The notes below the pieces were generated by a model. It worked only from the letters and a program-made list of their open reading frames with translations. It ran no database searches and had not been told where the DNA came from. Positions 3,065 to 38,896 of a stretch of DNA of 64,000 nt are shown piece after piece. The DNA lies in the IMG/VR virus record IMGVR_UViG_2925939204_000001; one strand, written 5' to 3'. Source of the stretch: a virus (taxonomy: Duplodnaviria; Heunggongvirae; Uroviricota; Caudoviricetes). Made by a program: the position numbers and the translations under genes. How positions within the stretch are numbered: position 1 is the first letter of the stretch; every line of letters begins with the position of its first letter.

Positions 3065-3456
3065 TGTACGGGACTACCAAATTAAGCACTCAACAGGCCA
3101 CCAATATGGAGTGGTCTATCGCTAACTGTAAGATCGTGTCATGCAATGCCACGCGTACTGATGTGGGCCATAAAAGCACTATAACAGGCTATCTAGTAAT
3201 GACCACCAGGGGGATGAGGGTTAGATTTCGCTGGAAAGCAGAGCAAGTAACGCCATTCAGAGAGCCATCAATGCCGCTGCAGGTTGAGCAGGATTATCTA
3301 TGTTTACCAGAAATAGATGGAGGAATGCTGGTGGAGTCTGATGGTAGTAAGGCTGATTTTGAAGCCAATTTGAAGCTGGCACAGGCCGTAATCAATAGTT
3401 ATCGCGGAAAGTGGATCGCAAAAGTGAAACATGTTGTTCGTTTGTCTCGCTGGTAG
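3064..3456 (+). CDS. hypothetical protein (130 aa)
   Basis: ORF start overlaps upstream stop (TGATG). Confidence 0.5.
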   Translation: MYGTTKLSTQQATNMEWSIANCKIVSCNATRTDVGHKSTITGYLVMTTRGMRVRFRWKAEQVTPFREPSMPLQVEQDYLCLPEIDGGMLVESDGSKADFEANLKLAQAVINSYRGKWIAKVKHVVRLSRW

Positions 3457-3957: not shown

Positions 3958-5318
3958 GTCTGGTTAATTGGGAGGAGCACCGCGCCCGCTTTATAGCGTT
4001 GCGTGAAGAAAAAGGGATCACTGTAAAGGAATACTGTGAGGAGCATGGCCTTAGCTTCAATACAGCCAGAAAGCATCTCAATATGAAAAAAAATGAGGTG
4101 CGGTCGCAGGTAAAGACAACAAAAAAAAGCACCAAATCACCTGAAAAAAAACGGGCGGGAAGAGCAACAAAAAAGCTGGAAGAGGGTGCAGAAAAAACAA
4201 AATTTACAGAAATTGACAATTCGCAGGGCGCAGGTTCTTTCCGAAGTATGCCGAGAAAGAAAACTTCGGATCATGAAAATAATGCGAATAATAACAATGA
4301 GATAAAAGAATCTGTCAGGAGATCATTGCGCGAAAAAATGGCGAAAATGATCCCCGAAGAAGATAAAAGCGCCCCAAAAATTGAGGGATCTTCTGCAATG
4401 ATCCCCGACGGTGCTGTGCAGCGTGCCACATTGCCCACTACGAATGTGGCTCGCGATATGATGAAGAACGGCGCAGAAGAACACCTGCGGTTAGCAATTC
4501 AAATGGCGCAAGAGCGCGCACTTCAGTATCAAAGCATTGTTGATCAGGAGGCCGAACGTCTACAGGCGGAAATAGACGCCTTGGGCGATAAAGAGCCAGA
4601 AGGAATGCACCCTGGGCAGCGCCTTCTCGGTCTAATCAGTGGCGCGGCCTACTACATGAATGATTTTATCAGTAGGTTGGCAGCTATATATCAGTCCGAA
4701 CAAAAGCTGCGACAGGGGGATGAAAAGCTTCGTCAGAGCGCTCGCCAGCAAGCATTCAAAGAGGCTGAGGCCAGAGAAAAACTCGAATTAGCACGCCTAC
4801 AGGCCGAACAGCGTGGCAAAGAGATTGAATATCGCATTGGCGCTGACGCACGCGCAGCCAGAGTTATCGCCGCCGCTATACGTATGCGTGAGCGCGAGGA
4901 ACTGGATGATATCGGTGTTGCTGAATACATCGAGCGCCAGGGTGTCAGCGTCCCGGCTATCCTCGCGGCGCGCGCGGCGAAAGCTATCACTCTTCTCGAA
5001 CCACCTGTTTCTGACGTCAATGATGTTGATGATGAACAGCTGGACAAAGAGGCAAGGGAGTTTGCAACGCTTCAGGCTAACCATCCGCAATGGCTGGCAG
5101 AGCGCCGGGCGGATGTGGCAACCATTGTTGAAGAATTGGGGTGCGGAGATTACGACCGCAATGGCGAGCGTAAAGCTGGAGAATTCGAGGCCAACGACGA
5201 AGAGCTGGATATTGACCCTTCGGCAACGGCTGAAATTTACGGTGATTATGATGTATCTGATGCAGGGTATGACGCCGGAGATGATGATATCGCGATAGAA
5301 CCGCCGGAGGATGATTAA
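3954..5318 (+). CDS. pacA: terminase small subunit PacA-like
   Basis: 454-aa ORF, N-terminus MSLVNWEEHRARFIALREEKGITVKEYCEEHGL (HTH-like), coupled to the large subunit; GATC-rich cluster inside 5' part. Confidence 0.7.
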   Translation: MSLVNWEEHRARFIALREEKGITVKEYCEEHGLSFNTARKHLNMKKNEVRSQVKTTKKSTKSPEKKRAGRATKKLEEGAEKTKFTEIDNSQGAGSFRSMPRKKTSDHENNANNNNEIKESVRRSLREKMAKMIPEEDKSAPKIEGSSAMIPDGAVQRATLPTTNVARDMMKNGAEEHLRLAIQMAQERALQYQSIVDQEAERLQAEIDALGDKEPEGMHPGQRLLGLISGAAYYMNDFISRLAAIYQSEQKLRQGDEKLRQSARQQAFKEAEAREKLELARLQAEQRGKEIEYRIGADARAARVIAAAIRMREREELDDIGVAEYIERQGVSVPAILAARAAKAITLLEPPVSDVNDVDDEQLDKEAREFATLQANHPQWLAERRADVATIVEELGCGDYDRNGERKAGEFEANDEELDIDPSATAEIYGDYDVSDAGYDAGDDDIAIEPPEDD

Positions 5319-6826
5319 TGGCTGGCGGGCGCAAGATTAAATGCGTCACCAGCGATCCACGCTGGCGCGATATGGTAATCAAATACCGCTACAACTTTAC
5401 CCAGGCTGTTGTCGATATTTTTGGGATGTTCCCCTCCCACCAGCAGCAGCAGATCATTCAGTCAGTGCAGGAAACGGGGAGTAGGACTACCGTCACGTCC
5501 GGACACGGAACGGGGAAGTCGTCCCTTACCGCGATGTTGCTGTTGATTTTTATGATCCTGTTCCCCGATGCCCGTGTCATCATTGTTGCTAACAAGATAG
5601 GCCAGGTAAAAACAGGCGTATTCAAATACGTTAAACAGTATTGGGCGAATGCAGTTAAGCGTCATGGGTGGTTGCAGACCTATTTTGTCCTCTCTGACAC
5701 CATGTTTTATGAGCGCTCCCGTAAGGGGATTTGGGAAGTTCTCTGCAAAGGTTATCGACTCGGCAACGAAGAAGCGCTGGCGGGGGAACACGCGGCACAT
5801 TTGCTTCTAATTCTGGATGAAGCATCTGGTATATCTGATAAGGCGATCGGCGTAATGACCGGTGCTCTTACTGAAGAAGATAACCGGATGTTGATGCTAT
5901 CCCAGCCAACAAGGCCAAGTGGTTATTTCTACGATTCGCACCATTCTCGAGCAAAAACCCCAGACAACCCGAAAGGGATCTGGACAGCAATTGTTCTTAA
6001 CTCGGAAGAATCACCGTTCGTCACACCACAATTCATCAAGCAGAAGCTTCTGGAATATGGCGGGCGCGATTCTATTGAGTACATGGTCAAGGTGCTTGGT
6101 CAGTTCCCACGAGAAATTAACGGCTATTTGCTTGGTCGTGATGAATGCGATCGCGCTGCTCGCCGCAAGGTGTTGTTGGAGAAAAACTGGGGATGGGTGG
6201 CAACGGCTGACGTTGGTAATGGGCGAGATAAGTCGGTCCTCAACATCTGCAAGGTATCTGGTCACAGGGATAAGCGGCGCGTTGTTAACTTTAAGGTAAT
6301 GGAGATGCCTGGCACTATGGACCCATTGGCCTTTGCTGACTTCATATATAACGAATGTACGCCGGAAAAATACCCGAATATAACAATCGCGGTTGATGCT
6401 GATGGTTTTGGTTCTGATACGTGTGCGCAGTTGGTGCGTCGTGGTGCGAACCCGGTACGTATTCGGTGGGGAAAACCCATGTTTGCGAACAAAGACAGGG
6501 AGCGATTTGTTAATCAGCGTGCCTACGCAAATATTATGGCGCGTGATGCCATAAAGTCAGGGCGTATGCGGATAGACAGTGACCCTAAAACGGCAGAGCA
6601 AGCGTCAAAAATCCCCTTTTTACTGAATGAAGAGGGGAAAATGGCGATGATGCGCAAAGAGCACATGCGGCAAAAGCTAAACATCAAATCGCCTGACCGA
6701 TGGGATACCTACTGCTTCACTATGCTGGTGGACTATGTGCCTGCTAATGAAGATATTGGTGCCGAAATGGCAACTTTCCGAGATCAGGTTCTGGCGGATA
6801 TCGAAATGCCGGCTCTGGATATATAA
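5318..6826 (+). CDS. pacB: terminase large subunit PacB-like (ATPase/nuclease)
   Basis: Walker A SGHGTGKS and Walker B LLLILDEAS motifs; 502 aa; overlaps pacA stop. Confidence 0.85.
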   Translation: MAGGRKIKCVTSDPRWRDMVIKYRYNFTQAVVDIFGMFPSHQQQQIIQSVQETGSRTTVTSGHGTGKSSLTAMLLLIFMILFPDARVIIVANKIGQVKTGVFKYVKQYWANAVKRHGWLQTYFVLSDTMFYERSRKGIWEVLCKGYRLGNEEALAGEHAAHLLLILDEASGISDKAIGVMTGALTEEDNRMLMLSQPTRPSGYFYDSHHSRAKTPDNPKGIWTAIVLNSEESPFVTPQFIKQKLLEYGGRDSIEYMVKVLGQFPREINGYLLGRDECDRAARRKVLLEKNWGWVATADVGNGRDKSVLNICKVSGHRDKRRVVNFKVMEMPGTMDPLAFADFIYNECTPEKYPNITIAVDADGFGSDTCAQLVRRGANPVRIRWGKPMFANKDRERFVNQRAYANIMARDAIKSGRMRIDSDPKTAEQASKIPFLLNEEGKMAMMRKEHMRQKLNIKSPDRWDTYCFTMLVDYVPANEDIGAEMATFRDQVLADIEMPALDI

Positions 6827-34146: not shown

Positions 34147-34474
34147 TCACATTAGTAGCTTTGTTAACTCCCTCAATACCAGGTAGAAGAGTAACAAAAA
34201 TATTGACGCGAGTATTTGAGTGGTCAATGAAGCGTTCATAAACAGATCAATTAGCATTAATAATTCGAAGATAACATCCATGTCATTCACTCCGTTTAAT
34301 TTTTAATCTAATGCCAGCAAATGAAGCTGGCCCCCGCATAAAGATTAATGAAAGTCACTTGTCACCAGTGAGGGGATTTATGAACCACATCCCCCTGAAC
34401 TGGTGGCCTGTCTGTTTCTCGCATTTCACACCCTGCATACAGTTTCCCCCAGGTTATGACTGAGAGGCTTTGTT

Positions 34475-34804
34475 ATGGGCTATAGCAGACTCGACGATAG
34501 GTACATTGAAGACGATATTTTTCGTGCGCTGTTTCACCAGGAAATGATTAAGCGGGTATCGGAGTATCACTCTGATAATTTCCAGTACACGATAAAGATT
34601 GATGAAGTATATCGTTCAGACCTTGCAGCCTACAGGGCGTATGGCAATGCAGATTTGCGCTGGGTATTCCGGGTGCTGGTGGGCCATGAGTCAGAAATGG
34701 AAGAAATGCCCGCCGGGACCACGTTAACTCTTCCTGATGTGGCATGGCTGAGGAACAAGATCCGTGATTACGCGAGCGCGGAACCGGAGATAGAAAATGC
34801 CTGA
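34475..34804 (+). CDS. hypothetical protein (109 aa)
   Basis: Complete ORF, coupled to the next. Confidence 0.45.
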   Translation: MGYSRLDDRYIEDDIFRALFHQEMIKRVSEYHSDNFQYTIKIDEVYRSDLAAYRAYGNADLRWVFRVLVGHESEMEEMPAGTTLTLPDVAWLRNKIRDYASAEPEIENA

Positions 34805-35990
34805 TTTCCTGAAAAACCAGGACGGGCGCTATATCACTGACGGCCTGTCCTCTAAGGACTTCACGCGTTTATTCGAGCTTATCAGGAAAGAACAAACCCG
34901 TAAGCGCCGACAAGCTCACCGGACGCTGACGCCAGGTAGACTGAGGAACAAATCCGCCGAAGATATTCTCAAGTTAGGGAAGAAAAAAGGCGGCACGTTC
35001 TTCACGCGAGACGACCTGAAAGGTTTCGAAAAGCTACGGAGTAAAACGCGCGAAAAATATGACAGCAAGACGGCTGGCATCACATACGCCCAGCTGGTGG
35101 CATCCAGCCAGGCAATCGATATTAAGCGTGCAAATAACGCCGTGGATGACGGATCTGGTATCAAAAGAGCTACACCCGTATCTCTTCGCCACAACGTGAT
35201 TAATATCCGCGTAGAAGCATCGGATATATCCGTCCACCAGCACCATATCGTCCGGATACGCTTTGAAGAATGGGATCAGATGGTCGATAACATCGCAGAA
35301 GACGATAAATCAGCTCTGAAAATCACTAAATCACTGTGCGCCGGGCGGGTGTCTTTCGATTGTGACTGTGGTCGTCATCAATACTGGTATCGTTACATCG
35401 CTACTGCGGGTAACTTTGCCCTGGCCCCGCCAAAAGAATACGCCTATCCAAAAGTTCGCAACCCGAAGCTGCAAGGCGTCGCCTGTAAACACGTGATCCA
35501 CTCAATGACGCGGTTACAGTCCGCCAGTTGGCAAATGAGTATTGCTCGTGCGCTACAAAAGGCTGCAACGCAAATTGCATTTGGTGACGATCGCCGCCGT
35601 ACAACCAAACACTTCTCAAAAGAAGACGAGAAGGAGTTTAATCGCAATCGTAGCAGTAAAACGAACGTTGAAGCCGCCAAACGCGAATGGAGGCTCTATC
35701 AGAAGCGCCAGGCAGCTTTAAGTACAAAACTGGCAAAGGACAACGGCAAGATCGACAAACTACGTGACCAATTGACCAAGGCCAGAAAGTTGTCAGATGC
35801 ACAGAAAAAACGGGCGGCAGCAAAAGAAGCGGCCTTGCAACGTGAGAAACAGAAAAACAAGGAGCTTCAGCAACGCCTTGCCGATCAGTTCGCACTGAAG
35901 AAGCAGGCGTTCATTGATGCGCTTGTCATGGCTGGAACACCACCAGCACAAGCTGAAAAAATGTTCATGGAGTATGTAAAAAAAGCATAA
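34797..35990 (+). CDS. hypothetical protein with Lys/Arg/Glu-rich coiled-coil C-terminus (397 aa)
   Basis: Complete ORF; Cys/His cluster CDCGRHQYW...CKHVIH mid-protein. Confidence 0.55.
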   Translation: MPDFLKNQDGRYITDGLSSKDFTRLFELIRKEQTRKRRQAHRTLTPGRLRNKSAEDILKLGKKKGGTFFTRDDLKGFEKLRSKTREKYDSKTAGITYAQLVASSQAIDIKRANNAVDDGSGIKRATPVSLRHNVINIRVEASDISVHQHHIVRIRFEEWDQMVDNIAEDDKSALKITKSLCAGRVSFDCDCGRHQYWYRYIATAGNFALAPPKEYAYPKVRNPKLQGVACKHVIHSMTRLQSASWQMSIARALQKAATQIAFGDDRRRTTKHFSKEDEKEFNRNRSSKTNVEAAKREWRLYQKRQAALSTKLAKDNGKIDKLRDQLTKARKLSDAQKKRAAAKEAALQREKQKNKELQQRLADQFALKKQAFIDALVMAGTPPAQAEKMFMEYVKKA

Positions 35991-36023
35991 ACCACACATA
36001 GCCTAGCTGCCTAGGCTAGGCTT

Positions 36024-36752
36024 TCATCTTTTTGAAAAATCAATTTCCGTTTTATCAAATAAATTTGAAATATCAGCAACCAATTTATTAAAATCATGAT
36101 CGCCATTATAAAGCGAAGTCTTCTTTATTGCCATTACAAAATCATATAACTTTTCTGGGGAGTCAATACCAACCCCTCTACTTTTAAAAAGCTCAATGAT
36201 AACTCCAACATCATCATATAATAACTTTATTGCCGCCATAATCTCTTTTTGCTGCCTAAGCAATCTCTCAAGTTCATTTTTATTTTCATCCATAATTCTT
36301 TTGTTGAATTGTGTATCATTAATACTTTTTATTATTTCAGCCTCTTTTATTTGCAACGCCTTTCTTTTATTTTGATCCATGTCAGCATCCAAATACCTTA
36401 TCTCTGTGTATATTTTACTTGTTAGCTTTGATACGCAAAGAGTGACAATCGGAGCTGCAATTGATGCAATAATTCCAAAAATAAATGGCAAGAAAAAATG
36501 ATAAAACCAAGGAGACAAAACGCCTTCATAAACTAGAGGAATCTTACCTCCAACAAATGTTACAGATAAAGTATATAGGATATCATCCTTTGACTTCATC
36601 AATATTAGTATATCTTTCCAATTAATAATTAGAAAAGAAATTAATATATATGCAAACACTTTATTAAAAAGCTTGTCTTTTATGGCATCTCCAAAAGATA
36701 CTTTGATTAGATCATTTTCAGTCAATTTTTCTGTTGATGAATCTGTATTCAT
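36024..36752 (-). CDS. AT-rich membrane protein, candidate defence/abortive-infection effector
   Basis: 242 aa; two hydrophobic helices then coiled-coil region; gene visibly much more AT-rich than neighbours; last gene of a minus-strand cluster. Confidence 0.55.
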   Translation of the reverse strand: MNTDSSTEKLTENDLIKVSFGDAIKDKLFNKVFAYILISFLIINWKDILILMKSKDDILYTLSVTFVGGKIPLVYEGVLSPWFYHFFLPFIFGIIASIAAPIVTLCVSKLTSKIYTEIRYLDADMDQNKRKALQIKEAEIIKSINDTQFNKRIMDENKNELERLLRQQKEIMAAIKLLYDDVGVIIELFKSRGVGIDSPEKLYDFVMAIKKTSLYNGDHDFNKLVADISNLFDKTEIDFSKR

Positions 36753-36814
36753 ATAAACTACCGTGATTTCTAATATCTATTTTATGAAAATAGCTGTCAT
36801 CCAGACCGCCAAAC

Positions 36815-37174
36815 TCAAATACCAACCAAGCTTTCAAGAGGAATGCCAAACTGGGAATGTAAACGGCGAATCATAGGTAACGTCAAATTTCGTGTCCCAT
36901 TTAGCACTTCGTAAACACGATTTGACTTACCAATCGCCGGCTCCAGATCCTTCACGGTCAGCCCTTGCTGTTCCATACGGAATTTAATGGCCTCAATAGG
37001 TGATGGTGGCTCAATTGGGTAATGTTTTTTCTCGTACTCCTCAATGAGAAGACTCATAACCTCAAAGAAATCACCTTCCGGAGTATTCATTTCCGGTTCG
37101 TTATCGAACATCGGTTCGACCGCACGCAGTGCGGCCTCATAATCTTGTTCTGTACGGATAGGTTTAATGTTCAT
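36815..37174 (-). CDS. HigA-family HTH antitoxin-like protein (second copy, C-terminal HTH)
   Basis: C-terminal LTVKDLEPAIGKSNRVYEVLNGTRNLTLPMIRRLHSQFGIPLESL resembles E. coli HigA-type antitoxins; no cognate RelE-like toxin directly upstream. Confidence 0.65.
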   Translation of the reverse strand: MNIKPIRTEQDYEAALRAVEPMFDNEPEMNTPEGDFFEVMSLLIEEYEKKHYPIEPPSPIEAIKFRMEQQGLTVKDLEPAIGKSNRVYEVLNGTRNLTLPMIRRLHSQFGIPLESLVGI

Positions 37175-37230
37175 TAATTACAAAGGAAAGCCCACTTGCT
37201 AAGTGGGCTTTTTGTATGTGTTTTACTATA

Positions 37231-37569
37231 TCAGGCTGCTTTTTTATTCAGGTTCCGCTGAGAAATAAATTTTTCAGCAGTATTGATACGACTTAACTCT
37301 TCCTGGACGCGCATATCATTTTCGACTTCCCACAGATCTACTGCGGTCTGAAGATTAATCCAAAAATCTACAGAAGTATCGAATGCTTTTGCCAGGCGAT
37401 ATGCCATATCCATCGTTAGCTTACGATTGTTATTAACAAGAGCGCTTACGGTGTTACGATGAACATGAAGTATTTCTGCTAACTCGTTGATCTTCAGCTC
37501 TAACGGCTCCAGGTATTCGTACAGCAGGATATCACCTACGGTCGTCGGTTTTCTGGTTGCCTGTTTCAT
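37231..37569 (-). CDS. higA: HigA antitoxin (XRE-family HTH)
   Basis: TVGDILLYEYLEPLELKINELAEILHVHRNTVSALVNNNRKLT; immediately downstream of the higB-type toxin gene. Confidence 0.75.
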   Translation of the reverse strand: MKQATRKPTTVGDILLYEYLEPLELKINELAEILHVHRNTVSALVNNNRKLTMDMAYRLAKAFDTSVDFWINLQTAVDLWEVENDMRVQEELSRINTAEKFISQRNLNKKAA

Positions 37570-37639: not shown

Positions 37640-37942
37640 TTAGTATTTGTGAGGGTCGAGATACAAGTCCTCGGCCTTTCCGTTAACCCACTTAAAAATT
37701 AACCTATATTGCTTATTCACCCTTACTGATGAATAGCCATTTAGCTTCCCTGACAGTTCCTCATACCGATTACCTGGTGGTGATCTTAAATCCTTACAGG
37801 TAGTTGCGGCATTGATAATGTCCAACTTCCGTGACAATGTCATATGAATATCAGGAGGTATCTTTCTATGTGGTGTTGAAAATTCAAAAAAATCATCAAG
37901 CCACGCATCCCTGAAATCCTTTATGTTAATTTTTTTGGTCAT
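37640..37942 (-). CDS. higB: HigB toxin (RelE/ParE superfamily)
   Basis: 100 aa; C-terminal YRLIFKWVNGKAEDLYLDPHKY resembles the HigB killer-protein core; toxin-first gene order. Confidence 0.75.
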   Translation of the reverse strand: MTKKINIKDFRDAWLDDFFEFSTPHRKIPPDIHMTLSRKLDIINAATTCKDLRSPPGNRYEELSGKLNGYSSVRVNKQYRLIFKWVNGKAEDLYLDPHKY

Positions 37943-38104
37943 TAGTCATTTGATCCTCCGTGATGATTACCGAATGCCATAACTATAGCGCACCGTTGCA
38001 CTGTGCGCAAGTGCATTTTATGAATTCCCCCTCCTTCATCCAAAATCACAATCTCCCGAAAATCTTCCTTTCGATACCTGACAGATCGACCTTTGAGGAT
38101 GCTT

Positions 38105-38896
38105 ATGGGCCGTTTTGACGAATGGTTTGCTGACGATGCAAACCTGGCAAGTAAGGAGTCAGAACATGACAGCACGCAGAGAGAAACGCCAGCGCCGATT
38201 GAAGCGAATGCAGGAGGCGCGCCGGAACATGGCAATACCGGTTCGGATTCATTCAGCATTCTGGAAGAGCAACCCGCCGCCAAAGCTGATAGCCATGATA
38301 ATTTTGCTGATAGCAACGGTGGCCTTACTCCGGATGCTGGCGAATCAGATATAGCCATACTTCCATCTTCCCTGGCTGGCAGAGAACCGACTCCACAGTT
38401 AAAAGCACGCTATAACGGGCATAAAGCCTTTAACGACCAAATCCGCGCAGACTGGATGCTGATTATTGAATCCAGCCCAGACGCGTTTCAGGCTCTCTTA
38501 TATCGACCAGATGTTGGCACATATGGGGTAGTCAGCGACGAAACAGGAGAAGAGTCATTCACTGAACTGGATAACAACCAACGCGAACTGACTTACCAGG
38601 AACCTGAAATCGTTTATGTGCTGGATAACCCTGACGGGCGTGACTCTTTCCATGCGATTGACGCAGACGGTGAGCAGGATGGCTTAACCGATGATGTTCT
38701 GATTCTGCGTATTGCAGCAAATAACGTCCCCGTCGGCTCAATTCTTGAATGGAATGAAGAGATGGTAAACGGCGTAGCGCGCCGCTGGTGGTACGTGCAC
38801 CGTATTTTTAGCTACGGCACACAGCATGTTGGTTCGCTTTACTACTGCATACCTGCCAGGAATTTTGATACGACTCAAAACGGAGTGATCGAATGA
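38105..38896 (+). CDS. putative virion/baseplate protein; true start uncertain
   Basis: Long ORF with ordered C-terminal half; N-terminal ~100 aa low-complexity and overlapped out of frame by a strongly-initiated small ORF (38166..38354). Confidence 0.45.
   Translation: MGRFDEWFADDANLASKESEHDSTQRETPAPIEANAGGAPEHGNTGSDSFSILEEQPAAKADSHDNFADSNGGLTPDAGESDIAILPSSLAGREPTPQLKARYNGHKAFNDQIRADWMLIIESSPDAFQALLYRPDVGTYGVVSDETGEESFTELDNNQRELTYQEPEIVYVLDNPDGRDSFHAIDADGEQDGLTDDVLILRIAANNVPVGSILEWNEEMVNGVARRWWYVHRIFSYGTQHVGSLYYCIPARNFDTTQNGVIE

Follow-up and report, generated by a model that had tools for sequence, protein, structure and literature searches.

Which genes of a small block inserted among the tail genes of a phage-plasmid belong together, and what might the one member without a recognisable family be for? 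The block lies in IMG/VR record IMGVR_UViG_2925939204_000001, a stretch of 64,000 nucleotides of Caudoviricetes DNA (hereafter, the window) to which Escherichia phage D6, a P1-related phage-plasmid, is 99.4% identical. It measures 2.1 kb, is flanked by the homologues of P1 tail genes 25 and 7, to which it runs antisense, and holds four genes, all on the minus strand and in the order higB, higA, orf72 and a gene that we call X. These correspond to D6 orf70-73, which are annotated as a RelE-family toxin, two 'HigA family' antitoxins and a hypothetical protein (Table 1). An earlier reading of the letters alone (here, the original prediction) had described a canonical higB-higA pair followed by a hairpin and a second HigA-family helix-turn-helix (HTH) gene, all of which are indeed in place, as judged from PF05015, TIGR02607 and HTH_3 matches. 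It had then coupled that second gene, orf72, to X as a dedicated unit of regulator or antitoxin and effector. Comparison with related elements gives a different answer: the block is a mosaic of three separable units, the higBA toxin-antitoxin (TA) module, orf72 and X, and X is independent of orf72. The full explanation that we favour, in which the block is a cargo cassette of this kind and X would act against infecting phages or competing elements, is put forward tentatively. The original prediction had picked out a good candidate gene, encoding a membrane protein, lying in a cargo hotspot and foreign in its base composition, and had given it the wrong partner.

In P1, genes 26-25-7-24-6-5 form one unbroken run with a gap of only 3 bp between genes 25 and 7, and because these two genes are contiguous there, the 2.1-kb block is an accessory insertion. 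The state of the slot was surveyed in 38 IMG/VR loci and several plasmids (L-numbers denote the loci compared). PF05015 higBA and X are accompanied by a complete orf72, by a 66-amino acid (aa) N-terminal piece of it or by a C-terminal piece (L037/L070); a PF09907 higB precedes orf72 either with X or without it (L061/L062); a 103/139-aa higBA pair is present with X (L076) or without it (L081); X stands alone (L078/L079; hmmsearch E 1e-58 to 1e-61); or the slot is nearly empty (L075, L082-84). When the conservation of the proposed orf72-X pair is followed across these elements, the combinations in the slot vary and each gene occurs without the other.

The independence of X is clearest where orf72 is damaged. 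X is intact beside truncated copies of orf72 (L002, L021-28, L037, L041) and beside a copy with a nonsense mutation (L033), and it is also intact at loci with no orf72 at all (L078, L079, L009, L014, L016, L018, L043); the obligate co-occurrence of a type II TA pair, with orf72 as the antitoxin of X, is therefore not seen. Taken with the presence of X alone and of higBA alone in the slot, this argues that orf72 is not the antitoxin of X. The two genes are also separated by a terminator-like hairpin just after the orf72 stop codon. The equivalent hairpin in L004 folds at -11.6 kcal/mol (GCGGTC..GACCGC then TTTT), and L006, L007 and L089 have hairpins of other sequence at the same position, so that a hairpin stands between higA and X in four lineages. 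In the arrangement that we propose, X would be set apart from orf72 by this hairpin, might be expressed from a promoter-like site of its own, and would not need orf72.

A second line of evidence for a separable X is that it behaves as a hypervariable allelic cassette. Elements with different X alleles have backbones that are 96-100% identical, and between sister elements a DNA identity of 91-100% gives way to 40-74% near the orf72 stop codon and returns to 93-100% at the stop codon of X. The divergence is limited to X and its 60-bp leader, and orf72 is 93-100% identical whichever X allele follows. There are at least six alleles, with protein identities of 34-60%; the membrane part averages about 60% identity and the remainder 26-35%. 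The ratio of non-synonymous to synonymous substitution rates (dN/dS) among them is 0.2-0.45, which identifies X as a real coding gene under purifying selection. With a synonymous rate (dS) of about 1 or more, distinct alleles are old and functional and have been moved by recombination; they are neither pseudogenes nor the products of recent hypermutation. X would thus be represented by old, deeply diverged alleles that are swapped by recombination, with orf72 and the end of gene 25 serving as the conserved borders.

The properties that first drew attention to X have stood up well. It had been described as far more AT-rich than its surroundings, and its GC fraction is 0.292 against a window mean of 0.478 (sd 0.04), making it essentially the lowest-GC 729-bp stretch of the 64 kb (0.04% of such stretches are as low); furthermore, its GC content is below that of its surroundings in all 11 contexts measured. 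It had matched no named family, and Pfam, NCBIfam and PADLOC likewise gave no match, while its PHROGs matches were confined to families of unknown function. Scanning 34 family members singly against Pfam and PADLOC gave only coiled-coil noise (for instance LmuB, JetC and ZapB), as did a search of the family profile against PDB sequences. The family is rare, a profile search recovering 53 clusters at E<=1e-3 among 1.84e9 representative proteins. The literature yielded nothing relevant under the protein accessions or for similar membrane/coiled-coil prophage proteins, and recent work on defence toxins and domain-centric discovery does not describe this arrangement. While the TA parts of the block are of known kinds, X represents an uncharacterised family.

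The predicted architecture of X, two membrane helices and a long coiled coil, also agrees with the original prediction. Hydrophobic segments at about residues 32-52 and 84-108 are conserved in hydropathy across the 34 family members, and an AlphaFold2 model built from 34 sequences (mean pLDDT 81) consists of a helix pair, a loop, one continuous helix over residues 81-191 and two short C-terminal helices; a model built from five sequences reached a pLDDT of 62, too weak to use. From an N-terminus that is short and polar, the layout proceeds through two hydrophobic helices, with a connecting loop of about 30 aa, and a long helix or coiled coil to a small C-terminal domain, which is also helical. 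Features conserved across the family sit in the N-terminal third, namely a KD-L-N motif, a first helix with an invariant N-W, a K-S-K turn, a loop of 20-30 residues and a second hydrophobic helix with two invariant prolines, and the long helix and C-terminal domain are poorly conserved. Lysine and arginine number 189 in the flanks and 85 in the loop, which favours an N-in/C-in topology. X is probably an inner-membrane protein, a two-helix hairpin with both ends inside, carrying a cytoplasmic coiled coil and a variable C-terminal domain. Among protein clusters, many public entries for X are 'partial' and lie at the ends of contigs of about 55 kb, which indicates that short-read assemblies often break in this AT-rich gene; such breaks may hide further alleles or co-resident elements.

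What, then, is orf72? It is an orphan HigA of the K-12 (YgjM-like) type. In a phmmer search against the PDB, its residues 6-112 align with residues 24-132 of K-12 HigA (5IFG_B, E 8.7e-8; 5YCL_A, about 8e-8), giving it homology over nearly its full length to a solved HigA with an N-terminal toxin-binding domain and a C-terminal Xre HTH; the HTH_3 match narrowly passes the Pfam cut-off of 23 bits. Another feature of this type, a PF09907 HigB encoded directly upstream, is missing. In keeping with the earlier remark that this gene has no RelE-type toxin, no PF09907-type HigB was found in the 64-kb window or in the complete D6 genome. In sister elements, which include p95_MLI121 and several IMG/VR and Logan contigs, the toxin is present: a 100-aa PF09907 HigB is encoded 4 bp upstream of an orf72 that is 97-98% identical (L004, L013, L034-36, L040). 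Against these elements, the window loses homology at about 38043 and regains it at 37181, a position 7 nt upstream of the orf72 ATG, and the replaced segment contains the PF05015 higB, its higA and the terminator hairpin. Thus orf72 became an orphan when a different TA cassette took the place of its toxin gene and promoter. The resemblance to K-12 HigB-HigA (YgjN/YgjM; 5IFG, 5YCL) covers the N-terminal and HTH domains of orf72 and, in the sister elements, the toxin-first order of a PF09907 higB and higA with its 4-bp junction. It differs in that the toxin is missing here and in that orf72 has 119 aa against 138 aa, with low similarity. We know of no X-like gene downstream of higBA in K-12.

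Overall, orf72 is under strong purifying selection (ratio of non-synonymous to synonymous polymorphism, pN/pS, 0.0-0.1), and in elements that lack the toxin it is decaying. The 66-aa N-terminal piece is the commonest form; other elements retain the C-terminal piece only (L037/L070) or have a stop codon with extra replacements (L033). Among 5,426 complete E. coli genomes, the orf72 sequence was found in 94, always on a plasmid and in most cases as a match limited to its first 180 bp or so, and this allele of X in only three. The ancestral order would have been higB(PF09907)-higA-X, with the promoter and higB later replaced by PF05015 higBA and its terminator; this would have left orf72 with neither a toxin nor an evident promoter. 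Its product may retain the ability to bind DNA or to neutralize an incoming PF09907 HigB, but the gene is decaying in sister elements; at most, the protein would be a leftover repressor or an anti-addiction antitoxin against the PF09907 HigB of competing elements.

In L004, an inverted repeat, CCAGCATGGGAC-N16-GTCCCATATTGG, lies at 3202-3241 over the PF09907 higB promoter region and is a candidate HigA operator that was lost from the window together with the toxin gene. In a separate observation, Stx1/H-19B phage records (H71-H94) contain PF09907 HigB homologues, mostly unannotated, in or near the immunity region, with 42% identity to the HigB of the D6-like elements.

X also occurs without company outside the tail-gene slot. 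Distant homologues are found alone and antisense between gpS and gpV of Klebsiella P2-like prophages, and alone in a lambdoid prophage, in DNA resembling integrative and conjugative elements or islands, and in a chromosome; a locus search with a narrower alignment returned D6-like loci only. None of the 10 stand-alone loci tested had any trace of HigA or HigB near X; the closest case is a weak HigA-like match in L090 about 5 kb away. X was found in D6 alone among 50,697 phage records. As genes 25 and 7 are contiguous in P1 and X is confined to D6 in these records, X is not a conserved structural or lysis gene of the P1 family; such an identity, which the original prediction had named as fatal to its proposal, does not apply.

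From the position, architecture and allelic pattern of X we infer a role in exclusion or abortive infection. In the lysogen, X would act at the membrane to exclude or abort infecting phages or competing elements, either by blocking entry or by damaging the membrane once it senses them; its variable cytoplasmic part would set the specificity, and its alleles would be kept by frequency-dependent selection. Proteins of this kind are known. HK97 gp15, P22 SieA and T4 Imm are prophage 'moron' membrane proteins that block superinfection, and TraS and SXT Eex are inner-membrane entry-exclusion proteins of conjugative elements. These are small inner-membrane accessory products, some encoded within tail gene clusters, and the entry-exclusion proteins have divergent specificity alleles on conserved backbones. 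X resembles them as a membrane protein encoded by an accessory gene, with divergent alleles on conserved backbones. However, it shares no sequence similarity with them (its PHROG matches being of unknown function only), and its variable part is predicted to be cytoplasmic. The X family most likely belongs among these element-borne membrane exclusion or abortive-infection factors.

A second comparison, with the SLATT and two-transmembrane (2TM) effectors of CBASS and Pycsar and with 2TM channel pores, rests on the order of two membrane helices followed by a cytoplasmic helical region. Unlike such effectors, none of the 34 X members matches a Pfam SLATT profile and no signalling enzyme is nearby; one member gave a weak PADLOC '2TM effector' match (E 4e-4), and no nucleotide-signal synthase, cyclase or TIR neighbour was present at the loci examined. 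A much bolder version of our proposal would make X the founder of a new family of proteins, anchored in the membrane, directed against phages or other elements and possibly pore- or channel-forming, whose diverged cytoplasmic coiled coil and C-terminal domain set the target. The protein would work either alone or as an exchangeable third part on TA warheads (PF09907 HigBA, PF05015 HigBA, TacAT), and the orphan HigA and its remnants would serve as anti-addiction decoys against rivals armed with the PF09907 toxin. Taken as a whole, this version is unlikely.

Were X to function in exclusion or abortive infection, current defence-finder libraries would be overlooking a compact membrane system made up of a single gene. 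The phage-plasmids that carry it circulate in clinical E. coli, Salmonella and Klebsiella, and its allele series on near-identical backbones would then offer a ready-made specificity panel. The locus also twice records the displacement of a toxin while the old antitoxin, or its toxin-binding half, was kept along with X, which bears on competition between TA modules and on the origin of orphan antitoxins. Should X prove to have no phenotype, the locus would be an ordinary TA-rich cargo slot.

Several observations weigh against an exclusion role for an independent X. No known homologue ties it to phage exclusion, and the profile and structure searches that had been proposed for the protein led to no meaningful family and no significant fold analogue. 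The top Foldseek matches in the PDB were the pore domains of NaK, KcsA, MthK, K2P and Kv channels, at non-significant values (E 2-10, TM-score 0.1-0.3), and the 'TFVGG' loop motif that might recall these tetrameric cation channels is not conserved beyond close relatives. Both the topology of X and its promoter are predictions, and promoter-like sites in the region are no more numerous than expected by chance. No known defence family is matched by any neighbour of the stand-alone X genes, so guilt by association for X is limited to TA modules and the hotspot position. Finally, three PF09907 higBA pairs that have diverged deeply from one another all have X immediately downstream; the loss of higB in two independent element families was a replacement by another TA and not a simple deletion; and all sampled D6-like elements that have X and a gene 25 of at least 93% identity also have an intact TA upstream. 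The recurrence beside PF09907 higBA and the replacement of one TA by another argue for some functional tie between X and TA modules.

This tie is the core of the alternative that survives best, which we nevertheless regard as somewhat unlikely: a facultative three-part system in which X is the sensor or effector third part of higB-higA-X, with an exchangeable TA warhead (PF09907 HigBA, PF05015 HigBA or TacAT). X would either detect infection at the membrane or be expressed by read-through once the TA promoter is derepressed, and in the window the working unit would be PF05015 higBA with X, orf72 being a leftover or an extra regulator. In its support, PF09907 higB-higA-X occurs in three lineages that are divided between two clades of a rough X tree, with deep divergence in each of the three genes (identities of 22-54% for HigB, 28-53% for HigA and 22-39% for X). 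The first lineage has a 100/119-aa HigBA pair with X in D6-like elements. The second has a 103/139-aa pair with X, found both in a D6-like element of Enterobacter and in Klebsiella IncFIB/HI1B plasmids; in the plasmids, an insertion sequence (IS) splits X. The third has a 103/138-aa pair with X in an unrelated phage-plasmid-like element of about 95 kb (L089 4221-5708) with a Gp23-type capsid gene, ParA and SLT, in which X lies 55 bp downstream of PF09907 higB and higA. In sisters of this element (L044-L046 2781-4714), the slot is occupied by TacA with a GNAT toxin, a 68-aa remnant of the N-terminal part of higA, and X. The same event has thus taken place twice independently, higB having been displaced by another TA while a higA relic and X were kept. 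The genes are on the same strand with a spacing of 55-90 bp. However, X is free of any HigA or HigB trace at all 10 stand-alone loci, higBA occurs alone in the same slot and in phage JK004, terminator-like hairpins stand between higA and X, and orf72 ends with its HTH and has no C-terminal extension like a chaperone-addiction element.

Published three-gene defences based on HigBA and having a modular third part provide a precedent for such a system. PD-lambda-2 is an abortive-infection defence of three genes, a HigB-like protein, a HigA-peptidase fusion and a P4-antitoxin-like protein (Vassallo et al. 2022, PMC9519451). Like it, the locus has a core of HigB/HigA type with a third gene downstream, and orf72 matches the PADLOC profile PD-Lambda-2_B with an E of 4e-43, at positions 1-119 of 402 only. 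Unlike the B component, orf72 lacks the C-terminal two-thirds with the ImmA/IrrE-type peptidase and ends after the HTH. No homologue of A or C is adjacent, and neither X nor the PF05015 HigB has a PADLOC match, so the block is not a PD-lambda-2 system. HigBAC and CmdTAC are toxin-antitoxin-chaperone (TAC) systems in which a modular third part is combined with varied TA warheads (Mets et al., bioRxiv 10.1101/2024.02.24.581848). Similarly, a HigBA-type TA is followed here by a third gene in a prophage hotspot, and X is kept while the upstream TA is swapped. In contrast to TAC systems, however, X is not SecB-like, having two hydrophobic helices and a coiled coil, it also occurs alone, and the HigA encoded by orf72 has no C-terminal chaperone-addiction (ChAD) tail.

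A third possibility is that X serves the life cycle of the element or the physiology of the host, in lysis timing or association with a holin, as a helper of injection or assembly, in membrane stress or lysogenic conversion, or in plasmid maintenance. In its favour, all sampled D6-like elements with a close gene 25 and a filled slot have some allele of X, X is located among tail or baseplate genes in D6-like as well as P2-like phages, and a membrane and coiled-coil architecture with no enzymatic domain would suit such a role. However, P1 and some D6-like elements lack X, the slot being empty or filled with other cargo in the latter, and X is transcribed antisense to the late tail genes. It is also found on non-phage plasmids, in islands and in a chromosome, and in Klebsiella plasmids an IS interrupts it. 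Moreover, a housekeeping phage function would not be expected to show ancient allelic diversity on near-identical backbones. On balance, we consider a life-cycle role improbable.

The coupling of orf72 to X as antitoxin or repressor and toxic membrane effector, in a two-gene abortive-infection or TA-like pair, is very improbable: the genes are neighbours on one strand, 62 bp apart, orf72 is under strong purifying selection and the N-terminal domain of HigA persists as a 66-68-aa open reading frame (ORF) in two element families, but X remains intact beside an orf72 cut at either end or bearing a stop codon (the truncated form being the majority), X is found alone, the two genes do not co-vary, orf72 has its cognate PF09907 toxin in sister elements, and the candidate operator ATGGGAC-N16-GTCCCAT, upstream of PF09907 higB in L004, is absent from the intergenic regions of the window, including that upstream of X (a weak test, as it is only a candidate operator).

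Three narrower identities for X were considered and rejected. It is not a spanin, a holin or another P1 late protein, being absent from P1 and antisense to the late genes; its architecture is not that of a SecB-like TAC chaperone; and it is not a small membrane toxin, as 242 aa is too long and it is tolerated without an antitoxin. Known membrane-toxin peptides are far shorter than this.

The PF05015 higBA module at the upstream end of the block raises fewer questions. Its toxin also matches phrog_3066 ('toxin of TA system'), its antitoxin exceeds the curated TIGR02607 cut-off of 47.7 bits, and the order of a PF05015 toxin followed by a TIGR02607 HTH antitoxin is that of the Rts1-type HigB-HigA systems. 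It is an intact and ordinary addiction or defence module. None of 200 shuffled sequences folds as well as the hairpin that closes it, which is terminator-like on both strands, and the orf72 start codon lies 13 nt downstream of this hairpin.

Table 1. Coordinates of the block and its borders in the 64,000-nt window.
Feature	Position	Strand	Description
P1 gene 25 homologue	34797..35990	+	D6 orf74, 'similar to P1 gene 25'; 57% identity to P1 gp25; one border of the slot
Hairpin	35999..36022	.	Terminator-like element shared by the convergent ends of X and the gene 25 homologue; -15.5 kcal/mol, z -1.9 (weak)
X	36024..36752	-	D6 orf73; 242 aa; uncharacterised family; phrog_8191 (unknown function), E 4.7e-114
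Promoter-like site upstream of X	36800-36772	-	ATGACA-17-GATATT, within an A/T-rich stretch
Hairpin after orf72	36793..36810	-	Terminator-like, with U-run, just after the orf72 stop; -9.7 kcal/mol, z about -3; stem conserved in 10 alleles
orf72	36815..37174	-	D6 orf72; 119 aa; orphan K-12-type (YgjM-like) HigA antitoxin/repressor; HTH_3 at 63-115, 24.2 bits
Hairpin closing PF05015 higBA	37187..37211	.	Terminator-like; 11-bp perfect stem, 3-nt loop; -17.9 kcal/mol, z -5.2
higA	37231..37569	-	D6 orf71; 112 aa; antitoxin, partner of PF05015 higB; TIGR02607 antidote_HigA, E 7.9e-30; HTH_3, E 7e-11
higB	37640..37942	-	D6 orf70; 100 aa; toxin, RelE/ParE superfamily, Rts1/'HigB-like' type; PF05015, E 4.4e-35 over 8-98
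P1 gene 7 homologue	38093..38896	+	D6 orf69, 'similar to P1 gene 7'; other border of the slot

Some further observations concern the wider distribution of these genes. In the Klebsiella pneumoniae IncFIB/IncHI1B plasmid L007 (3938-5764), X is split by an IS, with transposase ORFs at 4427-5394 and the C-terminal part of X at 5429-5764. A tblastn search gave X matches on 55 Klebsiella plasmid records, and 11 of 11 long matches among those listed cover residues 8-126 of X only, as in L007. The P1-like Cronobacter phage JK004 (L048) has a 103/139-aa PF09907-type higBA at 1028-1755 beside a mat homologue and no X, which indicates that this higBA also travels by itself.

The slot itself can hold other cargo, including a 179-aa protein with no Pfam or PADLOC match (L077 7432-7971) and a 66-aa AlpA-like HTH protein (L067 7261-7461). 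In pAPEC201603 (L003 6424-6995), a second pair of RelE/ParE and HigA type lies between the gene 26 and mat homologues, where the window (about 34147-34463) has only short unannotated ORFs, which suggests another cargo slot nearby. A 138-aa minus-strand ORF at 37942-38358 of the window overlaps the 5' end of the gene 7 homologue and looks spurious; over 37942-38896, the D6 annotation has the plus-strand tail gene only, with a start slightly later than that of the longest ORF.

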